Virus record (IMG/VR): IMGVR_UViG_2609459803_000005
Origin: a virus
Taxonomy: Duplodnaviria > Heunggongvirae > Uroviricota > Caudoviricetes
DNA: 7,046 nt
Reading direction: 5' to 3' (one strand)
The notes beneath the pieces are model-generated. The model did not search any database, had not been told where the DNA came from, and saw nothing but the letters and a program-made list of their open reading frames with translations. Each line of letters begins with the position of its first letter. Within the stretch, counting starts at the first letter, position 1. A program made the position numbers and the translations under genes. This document shows, one piece after another, positions 1 to 7,046 of this stretch.

Positions 1-537
1 ATGGAACCCCTTCGTGAAATAAGAAATCGGCTGCTTAACGGCTGGCAATTATCAAAAATGCATACTTTTGAAGTGGCTGCCAGGCATCAGTCCTTCGCCC
101 TGGCGGCAGAGGAATTGTCGCTGAGCCCCAGTGCGGTAAGTCACCGTATCAATCAGCTGGAAGAAGAATTGGGCATTCAGTTGTTTGTTCGTTCCCATCG
201 CAAAGTGGAATTAACGCACGAGGGGAAACGTGTTTATTGGGCGCTAAAATCGTCGCTGGATACCCTGAACCAGGAAATTCTTGATATCAAAAATCAGGAG
301 TTATCGGGAACGTTAACTCTGTATTCCCGGCCCTCTATCGCCCAATGCTGGTTGGTGCCCGCATTAGGTGACTTTACACGCCGGTATCTAACAGTAAAAG
401 CCGCCGGGGTATGGGCGGGGGGCATTGAAACACCTTCGGTGGAAACTCCATCGGAAGGCTCTAAATTTTTTGGTTTTGACATGGATAACGAATTCATCAG
501 TGGTTTTGATGTAGGGGCATGGGGAGTATTACTCTGA
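1..537 (+). pseudogene. dsdC: LysR-family transcriptional regulator, dsdC-like (D-serine deaminase activator), N-terminal HTH domain retained, 3' part replaced by unrelated sequence
   Basis: The first ~130 codons carry a classic LysR helix-turn-helix signature (FEVAARHQSFALAAEELSLSPSAVSHRINQLEEELGIQLFVRSHRKVELTHEGKRVY) and match my recollection of E. coli DsdC. After about nt 390-410 the translation (LTVKAAGVWAGGIETPSVETPSEGSKFF...) no longer looks like a LysR co-inducer domain, and the frame stops at 537, whereas LysR regulators are about 300 aa. Symbol assigned from memory. Confidence 0.7.
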
Positions 538-1340
538 TGGCGAAAAATGACTTTAAAGCGTTTGCAACTGATCGAAATGCCAATGTTATGTCGCAGGAGG
601 AATGGGAAGCGTTGCCTGCGCTTATATCCGGATTTACAGCAGGGAAAGCATCCAGTGCGCAAGTCAATAAGGTTATTCGGCAGGCCAGCTTTATTGCTGC
701 AGCTCTGGCCCAGTTTGTAAGTGATAAAACGCAACGGGATGTGCTTGATAATGGTGATCTGCCCGGTTTTGTTGAATTGCTGGGATCGGGGTTTGCTGTT
801 GAATACCTGAGCCGCAAGAATCCGTTTGGTGATATCAAATCGGATGGCACGGTGAAAACAGCTCTCGAAAACCTTGGTTTGGGAGAAGGCTCTGCATTAC
901 CGGTTGGTGTGCCTGTTCCGTGGCCTTCAGCTACACCACCGACAGGCTGGTTGAAATGCAATGGTGCAGCTTTTTCTGCTGAAGAATACCCGGAGCTGGC
1001 AAAGGCTTACCCGACAAATAAATTGCCTGATTTACGTGGTGAGTTTATTCGTGGCTGGGATGATGGGCGTGGAGTGGACAGTGGGCGAGCGTTATTGAGT
1101 GCTCAGAGCGATACGCTGCAAAATATTACAGGTAGCTTTTTGGATATGACCACGGGGCCAAATAATAATACTGTCGGCGCATTTACCTCTTCAACATTGA
1201 CACCAAATCTCGCATCAATTGCGACAGGTGGTACATATAAACAGGCGAATTATTATTTTGATGCATCACGTGTTGCCAGAACATCAACGGAAACACGTGC
1301 GCGAAATATTGCATTTAACTTTATCGTGAGGGCTGCATAA
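519..1340 (+). CDS. Phage tail-fibre protein, C-terminal portion only (5'-truncated remnant: short constant part to ~nt 873 plus variable receptor-binding segment)
   Basis: Tail-fibre C-terminal (collar-type) motif string [54 protein letters not shown]. The same frame has stops at 486-488 and 507-509, so the N-terminal bulk of a normal fibre gene is missing and the ATG at 519 may be fortuitous. The stop overlaps the next gene's start (TAATG at 1338-1342). Confidence 0.8.
862..887. repeat. Left crossover site of the invertible segment (gix/pix-like; internal dyad AAACC-TT-GGTTT)
   Basis: 15 bp TTGGTTTGGGAGAAG at 874-888 is repeated exactly in inverted orientation at 2739-2753. The flanks also partly match (TCGAAAACC versus TCATAAACG in the reverse complement). 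The AAACC-NN-GGTTT layout is as I recall for Gin-family crossover sites. It lies in the codons for LGLGE of the fibre gene. Confidence 0.6.
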
Positions 1341-1942
1341 TGGATAACGCTGTATTAAATAGCGAGCTTATTGCCACGAAGGCGGGGAATATTACCGTCT
1401 ATAGCTATGATGGTGAAACTCGGGAATATATTTCCACTTCAAATGAATATCTTGCCGTTGGTGTTGGTATCCCGGCATATTCCTGTCTGGATGAACCTGG
1501 TATACATAAGGCTGGTTATGCAATCTGCCGTTCGGCAGATTTAAACTCATGGGAATATGTGCCAGACCATCGCGGTGAAATCGTCTATAACACCGAAACG
1601 GGAGACGCCAAAGAAATCACAACTCCGGGTGATTACCCCGAAAATACAACCACTATCGCCCCGTTAACGCCATACGATAAATGGGATGGTGAGAAATGGG
1701 TGACAGACACTGAGGCACAACACAGTGCCGCAGTAGACGCGGCAGAAGCACAGCGCCAGTCACTGATTGATGCAGCAATGGCTTCCATTAGTCTGATTCA
1801 GCTGAAATTACAGGCCGGGCGGAAACTGACGCAGGCAGAAACAACCCGACTTAACGTCGTGCTGGATTACATTGACGCGGTGACGGCAACAGATACCAGC
1901 ACCGCGCCTGATGTCATCTGGCCTGAGCTGCCGGAGGCGTAG
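1340..1942 (+). CDS. Tail-fibre assembly protein (Tfa/U-like chaperone)
   Basis: 200-aa ORF whose start is translationally coupled to the fibre gene (TAATG), with a GTGAGGG Shine-Dalgarno 7 nt upstream. Size and position are typical of Tfa, and the C-terminus carries DTSTAPDVIWP, a motif shared with the convergent second assembly gene. Confidence 0.85.
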   Translation: MDNAVLNSELIATKAGNITVYSYDGETREYISTSNEYLAVGVGIPAYSCLDEPGIHKAGYAICRSADLNSWEYVPDHRGEIVYNTETGDAKEITTPGDYPENTTTIAPLTPYDKWDGEKWVTDTEAQHSAAVDAAEAQRQSLIDAAMASISLIQLKLQAGRKLTQAETTRLNVVLDYIDAVTATDTSTAPDVIWPELPEA

Positions 1943-2357
1943 GCCATTCAATATCGGGTGCTGTTGACGTATCAACACGCATCAGCAGCACACGGTATTT
2001 CTTCCATTGGGTGAGAGTTGAAGTTTCTTCATCAGTTGCGATACCAGCATCAACAGCATCCTGACGCCAGGATATTTCACTGTCAGCTTTTGCACGAAAT
2101 GTGGCTTTCATGTTTTCTGCATCTGATATTTTCTGTTCTGGTGAAAGCGGCGGCTCATCAACCCATGCAAGGGTCCCTGAAACCATTCCCAGCATTTTTC
2201 CTGTTGGCTTATTTCCCCCATTAAATCTGACAGCATCCTCATCGCTGATTTCAATACCATCCTGCGGCCATGTCCCCTCCTTGATATAACTTTCATATAG
2301 CGCTGCGTTGTAGATTGCATTTTCGGACGGGCTGTAAACACTTTTAACTTTATTCAT
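1914..2357 (-). CDS. Alternative tail-fibre assembly protein (U'-like), convergent with the first
   Basis: 147-aa ORF with a GGGAGA Shine-Dalgarno 7 nt before its ATG (2357..2355). It sits directly downstream of the minus-strand alternative fibre segment, whose stop TAA (2364..2362) lies between that Shine-Dalgarno and the ATG. C-terminal DTSTAPDIEWP motif. Its 3' end overlaps the plus-strand assembly gene by 29 bp. Confidence 0.8.
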   Translation of the reverse strand: MNKVKSVYSPSENAIYNAALYESYIKEGTWPQDGIEISDEDAVRFNGGNKPTGKMLGMVSGTLAWVDEPPLSPEQKISDAENMKATFRAKADSEISWRQDAVDAGIATDEETSTLTQWKKYRVLLMRVDTSTAPDIEWPTPPAAQAR

Positions 2358-2361
2358 TCTG

Positions 2362-2748
2362 TTATCTCCCTTTCGCTATATAGCAAAGATTAAACCCACC
2401 GGCGCCTGACATACGGGCTGTAAAACCCGTTCTTGAAGTACCAGTTGAGTTAACTCCATAAGCAGGCATGGTTGCTGGAGAAAGCAGAGACTCCTGGATA
2501 TCTGCCATTGTCAGTGTAATTGATTCGACCCGCGCGGGGAAAGGTAGCGGGAAAACAACATTCGTCCCTGTCTGTCCAACGGGGAAACCGAAAATACCCC
2601 ATTGTGTAATTACCCCATCCGGCCCCTTACTCCATCCAGATTTAGGAATCGGCCAGTCTGCTGCTCCAGAGTGCCCCGTTGTAAAACTACTCATATCTGG
2701 TACTTGCCCGGTATCCGTTCCGACGTTCCTCGTTGCCGCTTCTCCCAA
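2362..2748 (-). CDS. Alternative tail-fibre C-terminal variable segment (Sv'-like), silent in this orientation, expressed only after inversion
   Basis: Minus-strand ORF 2362..2793. Residues 15-18 (GLGE) are encoded by the inverted copy of the crossover repeat, so inversion would fuse the upstream fibre remnant (...ENLGLGE) in frame to this segment. The ORF's first ~14 codons lie outside the invertible segment and are probably not coding. Confidence 0.65.
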   Translation of the reverse strand: MGEAATRNVGTDTGQVPDMSSFTTGHSGAADWPIPKSGWSKGPDGVITQWGIFGFPVGQTGTNVVFPLPFPARVESITLTMADIQESLLSPATMPAYGVNSTGTSRTGFTARMSGAGGFNLCYIAKGR

Positions 2749-2765
2749 ACCAACGTTTATGAAAA
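2740..2765. repeat. Right crossover site of the invertible segment (inverted relative to the left site; internal dyad AAACC-AA-CGTTT)
   Basis: CTTCTCCCAAACCAA at 2739-2753 is the exact reverse complement of 874-888. It lies 55-80 bp upstream of the invertase start, the usual arrangement in Gin/Cin/Pin systems. Confidence 0.6.
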
Positions 2766-2819
2766 TGCAGAAATAACGATCAAATGGCATCATTCCTGCT
2801 TTTGTCAGGGAGATCTACC

Positions 2820-3374
2820 ATGCTTATTGGCTATGTACGTGTGTCAACAAATGACCAGAACACAGATCTACAACGTAATGCGCTGAACTGTGCAGGATGC
2901 GAGCTTATTTTTGAAGACAAGATAAGCGGTACAAAGTCCGAAAGGCCGGGACTGAAAAAACTGCTCAGGACATTATCGGCAGGTGACACTCTGGTCGTCT
3001 GGAAGCTGGATCGGCTGGGGCGTAGTATGCGGCATCTTGTCGTGCTGGTGGAGGAGTTGCGCGAACGAGGCATCAACTTTCGTAGTCTGACGGATTCAAT
3101 TGATACCAGCACACCAATGGGACGCTTTTTCTTTCATGTGATGGGTGCCCTGGCTGAAATGGAGCGTGAACTGATTGTTGAACGAACAAAAGTTGGACTG
3201 GAAGCTGCTCGCGCACAGGGACGAATTGGTGGACGTCGCCCCAAACTTACACCAGAACAATGGGAGCAGGCCGGACGATTAATTGCAGCAGGAATTCCTC
3301 GCCAGAAGGTAGCGATCATCTATGATATTGGTGTATCGACTTTGTATAAGAGGTTTCCAGCCAGGATTATATAA
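2820..3374 (+). CDS. Serine recombinase, DNA invertase of the Gin/Pin/Cin/Hin family
   Basis: N-terminus MLIGYVRVSTNDQNTDLQRNAL carries the catalytic-serine motif (YVRVST), followed by DRLGRS and a C-terminal HTH, in a protein of about 185 aa. GGGAGA Shine-Dalgarno 6 nt upstream of the ATG at 2820. The ORF-track start at 2784 is an in-frame upstream extension without a ribosome-binding site. Closely resembles e14 Pin as I remember it. Confidence 0.92.
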   Translation: MLIGYVRVSTNDQNTDLQRNALNCAGCELIFEDKISGTKSERPGLKKLLRTLSAGDTLVVWKLDRLGRSMRHLVVLVEELRERGINFRSLTDSIDTSTPMGRFFFHVMGALAEMERELIVERTKVGLEAARAQGRIGGRRPKLTPEQWEQAGRLIAAGIPRQKVAIIYDIGVSTLYKRFPARII

Positions 3375-3411
3375 AACCGCAGACACGCCGTATGCAAGAC
3401 GTGCTGCGGTT
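3375..3411 (+). terminator. Stem-loop immediately after the invertase stop codon (possible terminator or RNA-stability element; no U-tract)
   Basis: AACCGCAGACACG ... CGTG-CTGCGGTT forms a stem of about 12-13 bp with one bulge, starting 1 nt after the TAA. No T-run follows, so intrinsic termination is doubtful. Confidence 0.25.
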
Positions 3412-3570
3412 GGCTGATGCACTTTCGAGAGTGTATGTATTGAATTATTTCCAGCCGTTACTGATTTTACGTATTTTTTGTATGAGAGGAGTTGCACCAC
3501 CTCTTAAGCATAATTTGTTAGAATCATGGCAGCACAATAGCCATATATCCAATATAAAATACTTAACCTT

Positions 3571-4470
3571 CTAATCATTATGGAGTATTTGATCGCCGTA
3601 TGGCCAGCCATTTTCCCCAGGAAGGGTCATACCTAACATTGGCATAATACTAAGTTGTCCAATGGTAAATCCTAGAGCACTTGTATTACTGATTCCGGCA
3701 TAGGTCATATCAAGGGGGTTAGACTCTGAGCTGGACATAAAAAGATTTCTTGTGCCAATTCTATTCGCCATTGAGAACTGAATATGCCCACCAATTGTAT
3801 TTACGGTGTCCTGAGATATCCAGTTGTTTAACGCGATAAATGGCGCCCGCCACCAGTTAAGCGTGCCATTCTCAAAACGCCCCCTCGTCATCTCAATATC
3901 TTCCCGAAACTGCTGCTTTCTGTCTCCCAAGACTACCGGGGTACCTGTTGTCAGGTCAAGGCAGTCCTCAATTACAAGATTAGTGGGGTTTGATGGGGTG
4001 TTGTAGATCTTAATGATTTTATGTACCTGTGTTCTGAAACAGAATCCGTAAATAATCATCTCCGTTGCTACAGAACGGGGAAAAAACTGGCCAATATCCA
4101 GTATAAATTTTTCCGCGATTCCCTTTGTTAAAACTGCAATTTCATAAAGACTCGGGTAACTATCATAAGTCAACTCCGGCTGCTGAACATCATAATAATT
4201 AACTTCATGTAATGAAGATAATGATACGGCAAGTAACTCCTTCACATTTATACCGATCATTGTTCCTCCTGCAAAGCCGAAACCAAACTCCATAATTTTT
4301 TCCGGAGATAGACGGTATATGTCATTGGAGCGAATAACTGATACCGGAATCGAGAATAGTTTAGGACAGTGATTTGTCATTACACTTTCATGCTGGGTGA
4401 TTCTTGAGTCGCTTACGGCCCAGATACTTTCCCCTTCTTCCCTGTTTAGCCAGCAGGCTATTGCTGTCAT
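3571..4470 (-). CDS. Hypothetical protein, 299 aa, unknown function (possible Ntn-hydrolase/HslV-like N-terminal region, unverified)
   Basis: Long minus-strand ORF (track 3571..4608). I place the start at the ATG at 4470 because it has a strong AAGGGGG Shine-Dalgarno 6 nt upstream. This gives MTAIACWLNREEGESIWAVSDSRIT... I recognise no family with certainty. Confidence 0.7.
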   Translation of the reverse strand: MTAIACWLNREEGESIWAVSDSRITQHESVMTNHCPKLFSIPVSVIRSNDIYRLSPEKIMEFGFGFAGGTMIGINVKELLAVSLSSLHEVNYYDVQQPELTYDSYPSLYEIAVLTKGIAEKFILDIGQFFPRSVATEMIIYGFCFRTQVHKIIKIYNTPSNPTNLVIEDCLDLTTGTPVVLGDRKQQFREDIEMTRGRFENGTLNWWRAPFIALNNWISQDTVNTIGGHIQFSMANRIGTRNLFMSSSESNPLDMTYAGISNTSALGFTIGQLSIMPMLGMTLPGENGWPYGDQILHND

Positions 4471-4872
4471 TGAAAACCCCCTTTTAAGTAAAAAAATCAG
4501 ATTCAGATAGTGCATACATAATTTAGTCAAGTCATCTCTTTTAAGACGCATTGAGAAATGGTTGCTCAAGGTGCGCCAGTGAACGCGCACGAAAATAACT
4601 TCTTGCATTTCCCATTACACTCTGACTTTAGGGCCGCGTTAGATTTTAACATGGTGGCCGTGCATCCATTTAAATTGGTAATCTGGAGAATGAGTAACGC
4701 TGAATAGATTAACAATCTATGCGACTAACGGCCCTTAAAAGCGCAGCTCATAACATCGAATTTTACCAGTTTAGTCATTTTTAAAAAGTGCCCGAAAAAT
4801 GTTGTCCACGATTTGTGCTCTACGTCCCATCTTGACCTACTCCCTGATAATTCACTCAGAAGGCGGTTAGCA

Positions 4873-4900
4873 ATGTCCGTTAAGTGCTCACAACGGACAT
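4873..4900. promoter_or_regulatory. Perfect 9-bp inverted repeat (ATGTCCGTT-N10-AACGGACAT) inside the cargo-cassette spacer; candidate operator or RNA hairpin
   Basis: Directly visible dyad symmetry. It lies between the two cargo genes, inside the questionable 78-aa ORF. Confidence 0.3.
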
Positions 4901-4951
4901 TCAGCCCACTAAATCCGACCGTGTCGCTCAATATGCGGACAGGTTGTAGTG

Positions 4952-5554
4952 CTAACTGCATTGTAGCTGTGAGATTTCACCATCGATGGCTTCTATAACC
5001 TGTTTATAGCGGAGCATGACCTCATCATGAATCATCATTAATCCGCGGCCGTACTCTGTGGCTAGGATTGTGTATCTTTTCAGGTGTGCAAGATGTTCTT
5101 TGTTGCCAGTAATGTCACTTGCAACCTGCGTGGAGTCCAGCCGTTCGATAAGCGCATTATTGCCGCGATAGGAATCAATTAGGCTTCTTGCGCTTGTATA
5201 AAAAGCCACAATTTTTGAGAGTGTTTCTCTATGAACTTCAGGTAGGGATGCCGAGTTGGCTTCATAGAACGTGAAGTAGTTTTGAGTAATGGGGAAAATG
5301 TTATCGAACGGTGAGTTCCGGTCGTATTTTTCGATTTCTTCTGCCATTCTGGCCTGATACAGTTTAATCAGTGAGTCTATTTCCTCTCTGACACCCAATA
5401 GCGTTGTTATACGCTTCTCTCTGGCCGCTGTTGCCTGCTGTTTTGCCTGCTGTTTCACCTGAGTTGTCACTCCTATCATCGTGAAACAGCCACCTAAAAG
5501 AGCTGCTAAAAATGCGGAGATGAGATCTGAATATTCGTGCCAGAAGGTTAGCAT
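4952..5554 (-). CDS. Hypothetical membrane-anchored protein, 200 aa (one N-terminal hydrophobic helix, then a charged, probably helical domain)
   Basis: Minus-strand ORF whose N-terminus has a hydrophobic stretch (LISAFLAALLGGCFTMIGV), followed by a K/Q/E/R-rich segment. No convincing Shine-Dalgarno before the first ATG (5554). An alternative internal start at 5479 has an AGGTGG upstream but would remove part of the hydrophobic helix, so the start is uncertain. Confidence 0.65.
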   Translation of the reverse strand: MLTFWHEYSDLISAFLAALLGGCFTMIGVTTQVKQQAKQQATAAREKRITTLLGVREEIDSLIKLYQARMAEEIEKYDRNSPFDNIFPITQNYFTFYEANSASLPEVHRETLSKIVAFYTSARSLIDSYRGNNALIERLDSTQVASDITGNKEHLAHLKRYTILATEYGRGLMMIHDEVMLRYKQVIEAIDGEISQLQCS

Positions 5555-5565
5555 GGCGAAAATTC

Positions 5566-5588
5566 CATTGGGTTAAATTATGTCTATT
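5566..5588. promoter_or_regulatory. Perfect palindrome GGTTAAAT-N7-ATTTAACC 12 bp upstream of the first cargo gene; candidate operator overlapping a -10-like hexamer (CATAAT on the minus strand, 5572-5577)
   Basis: Exact 8-bp inverted repeat read from the sequence. AT-rich, so more likely a protein-binding site than a stable hairpin. Confidence 0.3.
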
Positions 5589-5888
5589 TAACCACATAAT
5601 GATACGAAGATACCTTCCAAAATGTTGCTATGACCCCATCTGTTGTTGCCTGGCTGGTGACGTGTCTGGGTATTAGCACCGTGCTCTCTCATTATCTAAG
5701 TCTGGGCCAATCCTCGTTCATAACAGGCATTCACTTCAGTCATGGCAGAAAGGTATGCATGCTGGAGAAGTCATGAAAGAAAAGAAGACTTCTGCCTCGT
5801 TTGTCATCACTGTTATCTTCTCATTGATTATGCAGGTCATAGTGGGGACACACAAAGCTTTGTACTATCCGATAGTGGTTAAGGTGGA

Positions 5889-7046
5889 TCACTCCACCTT
5901 TTCATCAAGCCAATCCGCCCACCACTGCATCATTTCTCTGCGCTTATCGAGATACTGAGCATGGTTGTAAATACCGCGCACAGATCCGCCGTTGGCATGT
6001 GCCAGTTGCACTTCAATAGCGTCAGCAGGCCATTCGTGCTCGTTCATAATCGTGCTGAATTCATGCCTGAATCCGTGACCGCTTTCCAGACCCTCATAGC
6101 CGATTTGTTTGATCACAAGTAGCACCGCGTTCTCGCAAATTGGCTTCTTCTTATCGTTGCGCCCGGAAAAAACAAACTCTGATACTGGTTTAGTGATTGA
6201 GCTTAGTGTAGTGAGAAGTTCAACCACCTGGTCTGACATCGGGACCACATGAATTTTGCGTCCCTTCATTACACTGGCGTCGATGGTGATAATCCTGTTT
6301 TCAAAATCGACGTTCTTCCATAGCATGGAGCGAAGCTCTTTCGTTCTTAGGGCTGTGTAGCGCAAAACTTTAGTCGCAATGAGCGATACGATACTTCCTG
6401 AAAATGTTGCCAGTGCTTTATTGAATGCCGGGATCTGGTCTGCAGGAAGAAACGGGAAGTTTTTCTTGCGGTATCCCTTCATGGCGTCAGCAAGGTCAGG
6501 TGCCGGGTTATATTTAGCCCTACCAGTGACAATAGCGTAACGGAAAACCTCGCCGCATCTTCTGCGGGCTTTATTTGCTCGCTCCATTGCACCGCGATCT
6601 TCAAATCTGCGGATTACTTCCAGCAGTTGCATCGGCTCAATCTCCTGAATTTCAAGGCCGCCGATGATAGGTAAAATGTCGTCATCAAACATTTTTGCAA
6701 GTTCAGTCGCATACCCTACTGACCATACTTGCTTCTTGTGCTCGTACCATTCCTTGTAAATCGCACTAAATGAATTGTTGTTAGACGAAGCCTTTTTCGC
6801 CTTTACCGGATCGATGCCAACCGAGATGTCTTTCCTCGCAGTCCATGCCTTATCCCTTGCTTCCTGCAAAGTCATAAGCGGATATTTTCCGACGGTCAGG
6901 ATTTTCTCCTTACCGTCAATCTTGTAGCGAAGCTGCCATACCTTTTTCCCGGATACAGGAACATAAAGGTACAGGCCATTACCATCGAGAAGGCGGTATG
7001 GTTTTTCTTTCGGCTTTGCTGCTTCAATCTGCTTAACGGTGAGCAT
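5889..7046 (-). CDS. intS: Tyrosine recombinase, P4-type prophage integrase (IntS-like, CPS-53/KpLE1 family)
   Basis: Complete 385-aa ORF. Tyrosine-recombinase catalytic residues are visible near the C-terminus (HGFRHEFST with H-x-x-R, and VRGIYNHAQY with the catalytic Tyr). The start codon is the last triplet of the window, so the expected tRNA attachment site lies outside it. Symbol inferred from the dsdC-proximal context and my memory of K-12 IntS. Confidence 0.88.
   Translation of the reverse strand: MLTVKQIEAAKPKEKPYRLLDGNGLYLYVPVSGKKVWQLRYKIDGKEKILTVGKYPLMTLQEARDKAWTARKDISVGIDPVKAKKASSNNNSFSAIYKEWYEHKKQVWSVGYATELAKMFDDDILPIIGGLEIQEIEPMQLLEVIRRFEDRGAMERANKARRRCGEVFRYAIVTGRAKYNPAPDLADAMKGYRKKNFPFLPADQIPAFNKALATFSGSIVSLIATKVLRYTALRTKELRSMLWKNVDFENRIITIDASVMKGRKIHVVPMSDQVVELLTTLSSITKPVSEFVFSGRNDKKKPICENAVLLVIKQIGYEGLESGHGFRHEFSTIMNEHEWPADAIEVQLAHANGGSVRGIYNHAQYLDKRREMMQWWADWLDEKVE

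Follow-up and report, generated by a model that had tools for sequence, protein, structure and literature searches.

Does a perfect palindrome just upstream of a cargo gene, at the end of a prophage, act as an operator, and if so for which regulator? A preliminary description of this locus saw in it a repressor-controlled moron promoter, in which the palindrome overlapped a −10-like CATAAT ahead of the first gene of a cargo cassette and could be bound by a dimeric regulator of the prophage or of the host. We have analyzed the complete stretch of DNA, 7,046 nucleotides long and called the window here, together with the homologous loci found in other prophages, plasmids and genomic islands. The features on which the argument depends are collected in Table 1.

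Table 1. Features of the window around the palindrome and the cargo genes
Feature	Positions	Strand	Remarks
Second 'cargo' gene, 345 aa (NADC1036 annotation: 299 aa)	3571..4608	minus	no family match; outside the portable unit
Conserved 3' region with two hairpins, including a perfect 10-bp repeat (4872-4901)	4868..4951	minus	no U-tract; cross-genus homology ends near 4868
200-aa protein gene	4952..5554	minus	N-terminal transmembrane helix, all-helical C-terminal domain; no family, no helix-turn-helix
Weak Shine-Dalgarno GGAA in conserved block ATGGAATT	5563..5566	minus	8 nt before ATG
Palindrome GGTTAAAT-N7-ATTTAACC	arms 5571-5578 and 5586-5593	minus (gene strand)	-39..-17 relative to ATG; 8+7+8, perfect
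−10-like CATAAT of the preliminary description	5577..5582	minus	spans spacer and right arm; alternative or second promoter candidate
Predicted transcription start, G	5592	minus	invariant; 7 nt beyond the final T of the −10; base 2 of the palindrome
Best-supported −10 candidate TATCAT (TAnnnT)	5599..5604	minus	-50..-45 relative to ATG; Fitch events per column 0,0,2,2,2,0
Conserved block GGAAGGTA	5611..5618	minus	plus strand reads TACCTT, 17 nt from TTAACC (5588-5593)
−35-like GCAACA	5623..5628	minus	weak, 3/6 consensus matches; 17-18 nt upstream of TAnnnT; predicted
5' boundary block of the unit (block A)	5703..5725	minus	cross-genus homology starts here; direct-repeat likeness to the 3' hairpin
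IntS-type tyrosine integrase	5889..7046	minus	argW just past the window end in the related genome

The portable unit in a prophage remnant at argW

The window, which corresponds to IMG/VR contig UViG_2619619133_000005, is a remnant, about 7 kb long, of an Escherichia coli prophage at argW. The order of its parts is a truncated dsdC fused to tail-fibre genes, an invertible segment with Pin, the 345-aa gene, the 200-aa gene and intS. From 3400 to 6000 the sequence is identical to that of E. coli NADC1036, in which it forms the end of a complete prophage of some 40 kb. This related prophage occupies the same argW site, and beyond its far end are found cscA (sucrose genes), a truncated dsdX-type permease gene and dsdA. 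In the window the first ORF (1-537) starts as the LysR-type DsdC, for about 128 residues judged by eye, and continues as sequence of the tail-fibre region; the prophage of this strain is deleted to the remnant of about 7 kb fused to dsdC. The invertible tail-fibre cassette extends from 519 to 3374, with tail-fibre and assembly genes on the plus strand (519-1942), an alternative set on the minus strand (1914-2793) and the Pin-type serine invertase at 2784-3374.

Two observations concern the surroundings of intS. Directly downstream of this gene there is an unannotated module of about 150 nt (5711-5866). Of 5,426 complete E. coli genomes about 2,000 have it, at 77-92% identity and always at the ends of prophages or islands, such as beside ybhB (the lambda DE3 end), beside an icd fragment (ST131) or near an integrase (O157:H7). 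One frame of the module encodes a recurrent small hydrophobic peptide, (M/V)KEKKTAAPFVVTFIFIGYASRNTRWDKTETHKASQWLARLYMF, and this frame is shifted in the window. The module may encode a small membrane protein that has escaped annotation, or it may be a regulatory region distal to int, comparable to sib/tI. Across the intS stop codon (5889) lies a perfect 8-bp inverted repeat, AAGGTGGA-N4-TCCACCTT (5881-5900), without a U-tract, that could serve intS as a terminator-like or processing hairpin.

When the 200-aa gene was compared across genera, homology comprised about 170 nt upstream, the gene itself and about 85 nt downstream with two hairpins, and nothing more. The portable unit thus measures about 850 bp (a 5' region of about 170 nt, the gene and the 3' hairpins). 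It was found in at least eight genera, in unrelated prophages, phage-plasmid-like plasmids and islands. Orthologues with 82-98% identity are located at a lambdoid prophage end at torT, on an E. coli plasmid, in Buttiauxella and Kluyvera, in islands of Serratia, Dickeya and Cronobacter, in a P2-like hotspot and on small Rep3 and ParM plasmids. Others in this range of identity are carried by about 30 'non-mobilizable' IncFIB plasmids from Enterobacter, Citrobacter and Salmonella, each of roughly 110 kb. The gene that follows changes with the context (345-aa, 261-aa, DUF4238, 445-aa and GNAT genes). Since the downstream gene varies and the homology is limited to the unit, the cargo 'cassette' of the preliminary description does not hold as one operon: the 345-aa gene is swapped for unrelated genes elsewhere, the conserved hairpins follow the 200-aa gene, and the latter appears to be a self-contained moron. 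Independent mobility and conserved non-coding 5' and 3' ends were both seen; a consensus scan of 4800-6100 found neither a promoter nor a terminator.

The start codon of the 200-aa gene is invariant among the orthologues. The AlphaFold model of its product is all-helical (pLDDT 72). No match was found in Pfam, PHROG or NCBIfam, nor any significant match in the PDB by sequence or by fold, and two marginal PADLOC matches of ZorB/MotB type (E=0.002-0.006) covered the transmembrane segment only. The neighbours of the gene elsewhere are typical cargo of defence islands, among them a DUF4238 protein, an AAA_15/AAA_21 ATPase with its partner, an HNH endonuclease and, in a P2 gpA-side hotspot, large hypothetical proteins (L007 4795-7708; L011 4887-5867; L017 867-4376; L004 4750-5777). 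As the gene is found in cargo or hotspot positions of prophages beside such variable genes (DUF4238, AAA_15/21), the 200-aa membrane protein may itself be a defence or exclusion factor, in which case its regulation would be of practical interest.

A direct repeat of about 24 nt brackets the unit. In the window its copies are block A and the perfect repeat of the 3' region (Table 1), and it was also detected at L011, L027, L007 and L021. The two copies read GTCCGCTTTGAGCGAGGAACGGA and GTCCGCTATGAGCGAAAAGCGGA in Cronobacter, and TGAATGCCTGTTATGA and TGAATGTCCGTTGTGA in this window. In most lineages the best local alignment between the 5' and 3' ends corresponds to this same pair of elements, with scores that are marginal except in Cronobacter, and the copies look more alike within than between lineages (by eye, from pairwise alignments). 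The repeat could mark a recombination-based mechanism of mobility. It is a long shot that the unit is a previously undescribed mobile single-gene cassette bracketed by a hairpin-forming repeat, with the palindrome among its expression or mobility signals and not a conventional operator.

Conservation of the palindrome arms

An exact search of the whole window gave a single match to GGTTAAAT-TATGTCT-ATTTAACC, at 5571-5593. The perfect palindrome therefore exists as described, but 5 bp to the right of the coordinates first assigned to it (5566-5588), and it is separated from the minus-strand ATG at 5554 by 16 nt (5555-5570) and not by 12 bp. The order on the gene strand is TATCATTATGT-GGTTAAAT-AGACATA-ATTTAACC-CAATGGAATTTTCGCC-ATG. 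By itself such an inverted repeat is weak evidence, being marginally unusual. Perfect 8-bp inverted repeats with spacers of up to 12 nt produced six seed matches (four distinct repeats) in the window, against 1.7 ± 1.4 in shuffled sequence, and the probability of at least one was, from shuffles, 0.06 in the 334-nt intergenic stretch and 0.03 when only the 80 nt ahead of the ATG are considered. IMG/VR contains 46 instances of the exact pattern, which is about chance level, and the flanks are common to homologous loci only. It is conservation that lifts the palindrome above chance.

In order to compare rates of change we used a set of 10 orthologues with a pairwise difference of 0.246 at four-fold degenerate sites. 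The pairwise differences were 0.069 and 0.075 in the two arms, 0.210 in the spacer, 0.242 in the 16 nt before the ATG and 0.236 in the 38 nt upstream. Fitch event counts on the coding-sequence tree, taking the four-fold rate of 1.27 events per site as the neutral reference, gave 5 events in the 16 columns of the arms where 20.3 would be expected at that rate (Poisson P=6e-5), 8 events in the 7 columns of the spacer and 20 in the 17 columns of the 17 nt upstream. The arms are thus about four-fold less substituted than four-fold degenerate sites, and they are the two most conserved 8-mers of the entire 5' region. The length of the spacer is fixed in 13 of 14 orthologues and its sequence is neutral. 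More distant homologues (56% and 43% identity) do not have the palindrome.

These rates indicate that the spacer and the flanks evolve neutrally and that both arms are under purifying selection, and we take the palindrome to be a selectively maintained, functional cis element of an ordinary kind within the 5' control region. It is very improbable that it is functionless, a chance inverted repeat apparently conserved by the recent spread of the unit. Inverted repeats of 8 bp are indeed frequent in the window and many carriers are more than 95% identical, but chance would not single out the arms, with 0.31 events per site versus 1.14 in the spacer and 1.27 at four-fold sites. Two constrained 8-mers around a free 7-mer fit either the binding site of a dimer or a stem-loop.

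The 5' region is also found alone. Five loci (including L031 9930-10150, L053 and L078; E. coli M8, MS 119-7 and CFIAFB20190172) have this region with the perfect palindrome and without the 200-aa gene. In loci of the L031 type the homology stops directly after CCCAATGG, 8 nt past the right arm, and beyond the breakpoint come a 205-aa gene in convergent orientation and a gene for a protein kinase. As these loci keep the 5' region without the gene, the control region can be separated from the gene by recombination beside the palindrome.

Stem-loop and operator readings of the palindrome

Where the palindrome lies relative to the start of transcription depends on the promoter. A PWM scan gave no sigma-70 candidate above shuffled sequence and had no discriminating power: the best scores were 7.3 bits in sense and 8.5 bits in antisense orientation, reached by 69% and 45% of shuffled 180-mers, and CATAAT scored 5.0 bits. 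The overlap of CATAAT with the palindrome is as originally reported, on the gene strand from 5582 to 5577 across the spacer and the right arm. As a −10 this hexamer is less convincing, since the best-conserved −10 candidate is an invariant TAnnnT situated 22 nt further upstream. The CATAAT site reads TATAAT in Serratia and L027 and CATGAT, CTTAGT (L017) or CATAAC (L018) in others, and its Fitch events by position (2,1,0,1,1,1) do not follow the pattern expected of a −10. The TAnnnT from 5604 to 5599 is the one TAnnnT, on either strand, that is invariant in all 12 gene-bearing orthologues, where it appears as TATCAT, TAGAAT, TAGCGT, TAGTGT or TAGCCT, with positions 1, 2 and 6 invariant and 3-5 free. 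In these 12 orthologues a nearly invariant (G/A)CAACA precedes it by 17-18 nt. CATAAT is a possible second promoter. Another CATAAT on the plus strand (5595-5600), just outside the palindrome, is not conserved. At L022 a 5' hairpin was seen after a TATAAT, a suggestive but weak observation.

From the TAnnnT the predicted start is G5592, which would place the palindrome at about +1..+23 of the mRNA. We infer this to be the best-supported placement, the start itself being predicted; the palindrome also lies over the CATAAT candidate, and the scores of both promoters are no better than chance.

Our best reading, which we hold tentatively, is that the palindrome forms a stem-loop at the very 5' end of the mRNA, with a promoter, a start site and a function at the RNA level that are all predicted. 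A weak promoter made of GCAACA, 17-18 nt and TAnnnT (5604 to 5599) would drive transcription from G5592. The first 22-23 nt of the mRNA would then be the palindrome, folded into a 5'-terminal stem-loop with a stem of 7-8 bp and a loop of 7 nt, with the Shine-Dalgarno 4 nt and the AUG 16 nt downstream of it. A hairpin flush with the 5' end would protect the mRNA from decay that depends on this end (RppH, RNase E), and the protected mRNA would allow a weakly transcribed moron to be expressed in any host or mobile element without a trans-acting factor.

The folding predictions are consistent with this stem-loop. The 23-mer has a free energy of -5.1 kcal/mol (z=-4.4), when the predicted 5' UTRs of 14 orthologues were folded the hairpin was part of the minimum-energy structure in 13 (mean pair probabilities 0.5-0.99), and it is present in the RNAalifold consensus. 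The invariant TAnnnT puts +1 on the invariant G near the outer edge of the left arm, so that the 5' edge of the hairpin coincides with the predicted start, a coincidence that is relevant for a 5' stabiliser hairpin and not for an operator. Besides, the element moves with the gene through elements that share no regulator, which favours a cis element independent of any factor, and a complete related prophage has no further copy of it. Some changes in the arms preserve pairing: a G-C became A-U in Cronobacter L011, G.U wobbles appear in L015 and L017, and L016 has a re-registered palindrome, GATTAATT-N6-AATTCATC, near the same place and with two double changes.

Other data speak against the stem-loop. 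The arms are conserved as sequence and not merely as pairing, the stem is AU-rich and marginally stable (two G-C pairs), the best −10 candidate of L016 overlaps the palindrome, a better fit to an operator, and no promoter candidate is above shuffles, the start being predicted. Covariation is not significant: the alignment has a single pair with a double change, a result equalled by 112 of 500 shuffles. Uncompensated mismatches occur in the arms of three lineages (A.A in Dickeya, A.C in L018 and L082), and the transitions in the arms show no strand bias, two giving G.U in the sense RNA and three A.C. An RNA hairpin accounts for the same data no less well than an operator.

The lack of both significant covariation and strand bias is also what favours the alternative that the palindrome is a putative operator, bound by a dimeric DNA-binding protein supplied by the host (from the core genome of Enterobacterales) that represses or modulates the moron. 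We regard this as a close rival of the stem-loop, possible if somewhat unlikely. The operator would be centred near +11 of the TAnnnT promoter or would lie over the alternative CATAAT −10. Its half-sites of 8 bp are conserved, more so than the spacer, which is neutral but length-fixed in 13 of 14 orthologues, and this dyad is the classical signature of an operator. Each arm is moreover identical to one half of the information-theory consensus for Fis, ATTGGTTAAATTTTAACCAAT (PMC2018646), and that paper was the only relevant match in a literature search for the two octamers. The range given there for verified Fis sites is 4.9-5.4 bits (PMC2018646). According to a rough estimate of our own, not made from the matrix, one perfect half could bring a site to about 5 bits, within this range. 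However, a single Fis dimer could not span both arms, whose spacing exceeds that of its site by 8 bp (a 15-bp core versus 23 bp): against the 15-bp core G-N13-C matching GGTTAAATTTTAACC, the half-sites match and the outer G and C are separated by 22 bp. The arms also resemble the nucleation motif of H-NS, TCGATAAATT. Fis and H-NS are leads only.

Several points weigh against any host operator. The window encodes no regulator, none accompanies the unit from place to place, and the product of the gene itself does not have a DNA-binding fold. There is a single copy of the palindrome in the window and a single one in the 49-kb prophage region, and no regulator is shared across contexts. From centre to centre the half-sites are separated by 15 bp (about 1.5 helical turns), a spacing that a simple HTH dimer would accommodate poorly. 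L016 retains the dyad symmetry with a changed half-site sequence, unexpected for a conserved host factor. As for individual regulators, CRP, DnaA box, IHF, Fur, MqsA and TyrR, and likewise IclR, PdhR, NagC/Mlc, LTTR T-N11-A and hix/gix, either gave no fit to their consensus sequences or matched in non-conserved positions. Autoregulation by the 200-aa product was rejected on the basis of its all-helical model, with no HTH and no PDB match.

An operator for a repressor encoded by the prophage itself is hardly credible. The place beside a cargo gene at the prophage end and the dyad symmetry would be compatible with it, but the window is a 7-kb remnant with neither immunity region nor repressor. 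The second copy that such a repressor might have in a related prophage was looked for in the 49 kb of NADC1036 that include the complete prophage and was not found, even when as many as 3 mismatches were allowed, and the cI-cro interval there carries different, unrelated repeats. The element is also found in Mu-tail/lambdoid, lambdoid (torT), P2-like, phage-plasmid-like, plasmid and island contexts of other genera. Of the repressor-controlled moron promoter originally proposed, what stands is a maintained dyad in the 5' region of a self-contained moron; control by a prophage regulator is unlikely from these comparisons, and the promoter is not above chance.

Upstream of the palindrome, GGAAGGTA is the third most conserved 8-mer of the 5' region and its GGAA has zero substitution events. 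This block (5611-5618) and the one at 5623-5630 are strongly conserved between the predicted −35 and −10, and neither of the leading mechanisms accounts for them; an activator site and the −10 of a divergent promoter are possibilities. In the latter case the arms would be core promoter elements, with TTAACC (5588-5593, plus strand) as −35 and TACCTT (5611-5616) as −10 of a transcript, antisense or divergent, that would cross the conserved 5' region; the right arm would be kept as a sense −10 (CATAAT/TAATTT). We consider this improbable. Of 12 orthologues 11 have TTAACC-N17-TACCTT, which in most is the top-scoring candidate, the rank of GGAAGGTA among the conserved 8-mers agrees with it, and the L031-type loci retain the region without the 200-aa gene, with an intact 93-aa ORF on the plus strand. 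Yet its 8.5 bits are reached by 45% of shuffled 180-mers, the strongest conservation in the block falls on GGAA and not on the T-A...T positions, and the last four bases of the right arm (AACC) stay unexplained. The plus-strand ORF from 5630 has stops in TL20, Kluyvera, Serratia and Dickeya, and indels of 1 nt exclude coding. The divergent small ORF 5630-5776 was for these same reasons rejected as the cause of the conservation; it has no family matches, and its homologues, in E. coli, E. albertii and Salmonella, are short ORFs that differ in length.

Other structures were considered and rejected. A long-range helix between UUGGAAGGU (-66..-58) and ACCUUCUGG (+7..+15) is predicted in E. coli and is broken in Dickeya, L021 and L017 (by inspection), and its 3' side is conserved because of coding constraint. 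A helix of block A with the GATGAGTTCA block had one covarying pair in a set of 8 sequences, and the pairing is broken in L081 and L031. Rfam families gave only chance-level matches in 4800-6000 (E 0.1-1, far below gathering scores). No terminator-like site, for intS or otherwise, was found in 4800-6100; the element has two G-C pairs and no adjacent T-run, and it is conserved without intS. The arms fit the GTTRRRY and RYYYAAC of an integron attC in reverse order and with no L boxes (by inspection). A Xer dif-like site, with 11-bp XerC/XerD arms around a centre of 6-8 bp, does not fit either: the XerD-arm-like GTTAAAT points inward, and the L031 junction is 8 nt outside the arm, not in the spacer.

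Comparison with known systems

If the stem-loop reading is true, an accessory gene carries its own compact expression signal, independent of the host, between prophages and plasmids of different genera. No new class of mechanism is opened by the palindrome. It would provide a clean natural test case of an RNA hairpin versus an operator, because compensatory mutations in the arms tell them apart.

The hairpin in the 5' UTR of ompA is the classic 5' stabiliser, in which a hairpin within a few nucleotides of the 5' end blocks decay by RNase E and RppH. Like such stabilisers, the palindrome hairpin is predicted at +1/+2, has a conserved stem and a free loop, needs no trans factor, and lies upstream of the ribosome-binding site without sequestering it. 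Unlike them, its stem is short and AU-rich (-5 kcal/mol) and conserved in sequence, not covarying, and the 5' end is predicted.

The lac O1 operator is a promoter-proximal dyad centred near +11. The palindrome is similarly a perfect dyad with conserved half-sites, a spacer of fixed length and free sequence, and a centre near +11 of the predicted start. It differs from lac O1 in having no cognate regulator and no auxiliary operators, in being a single copy, and in its half-sites, which are 15 bp apart from centre to centre. With Fis sites the similarity is that each arm, GGTTAAA(T), equals one consensus half-site; the difference lies in the distance between the outer G and C, 22 bp and not 14. 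One dimer could not use both arms, and at best there would be two overlapping half-perfect sites 8 bp apart.

A phage moron consists of a promoter, a gene and a terminator inserted between conserved phage genes and is expressed from the prophage. The unit described here resembles morons in being compact, with its own 5' region and 3' hairpins, in moving independently of its neighbours, and in its place between the tail-fibre and invertase genes and the prophage end. It departs from them in that its promoter is weak and putative and its 3' hairpins have no U-tract, and in that it is also found on plasmids and chromosomal islands, flanked by a direct repeat of about 24 nt.
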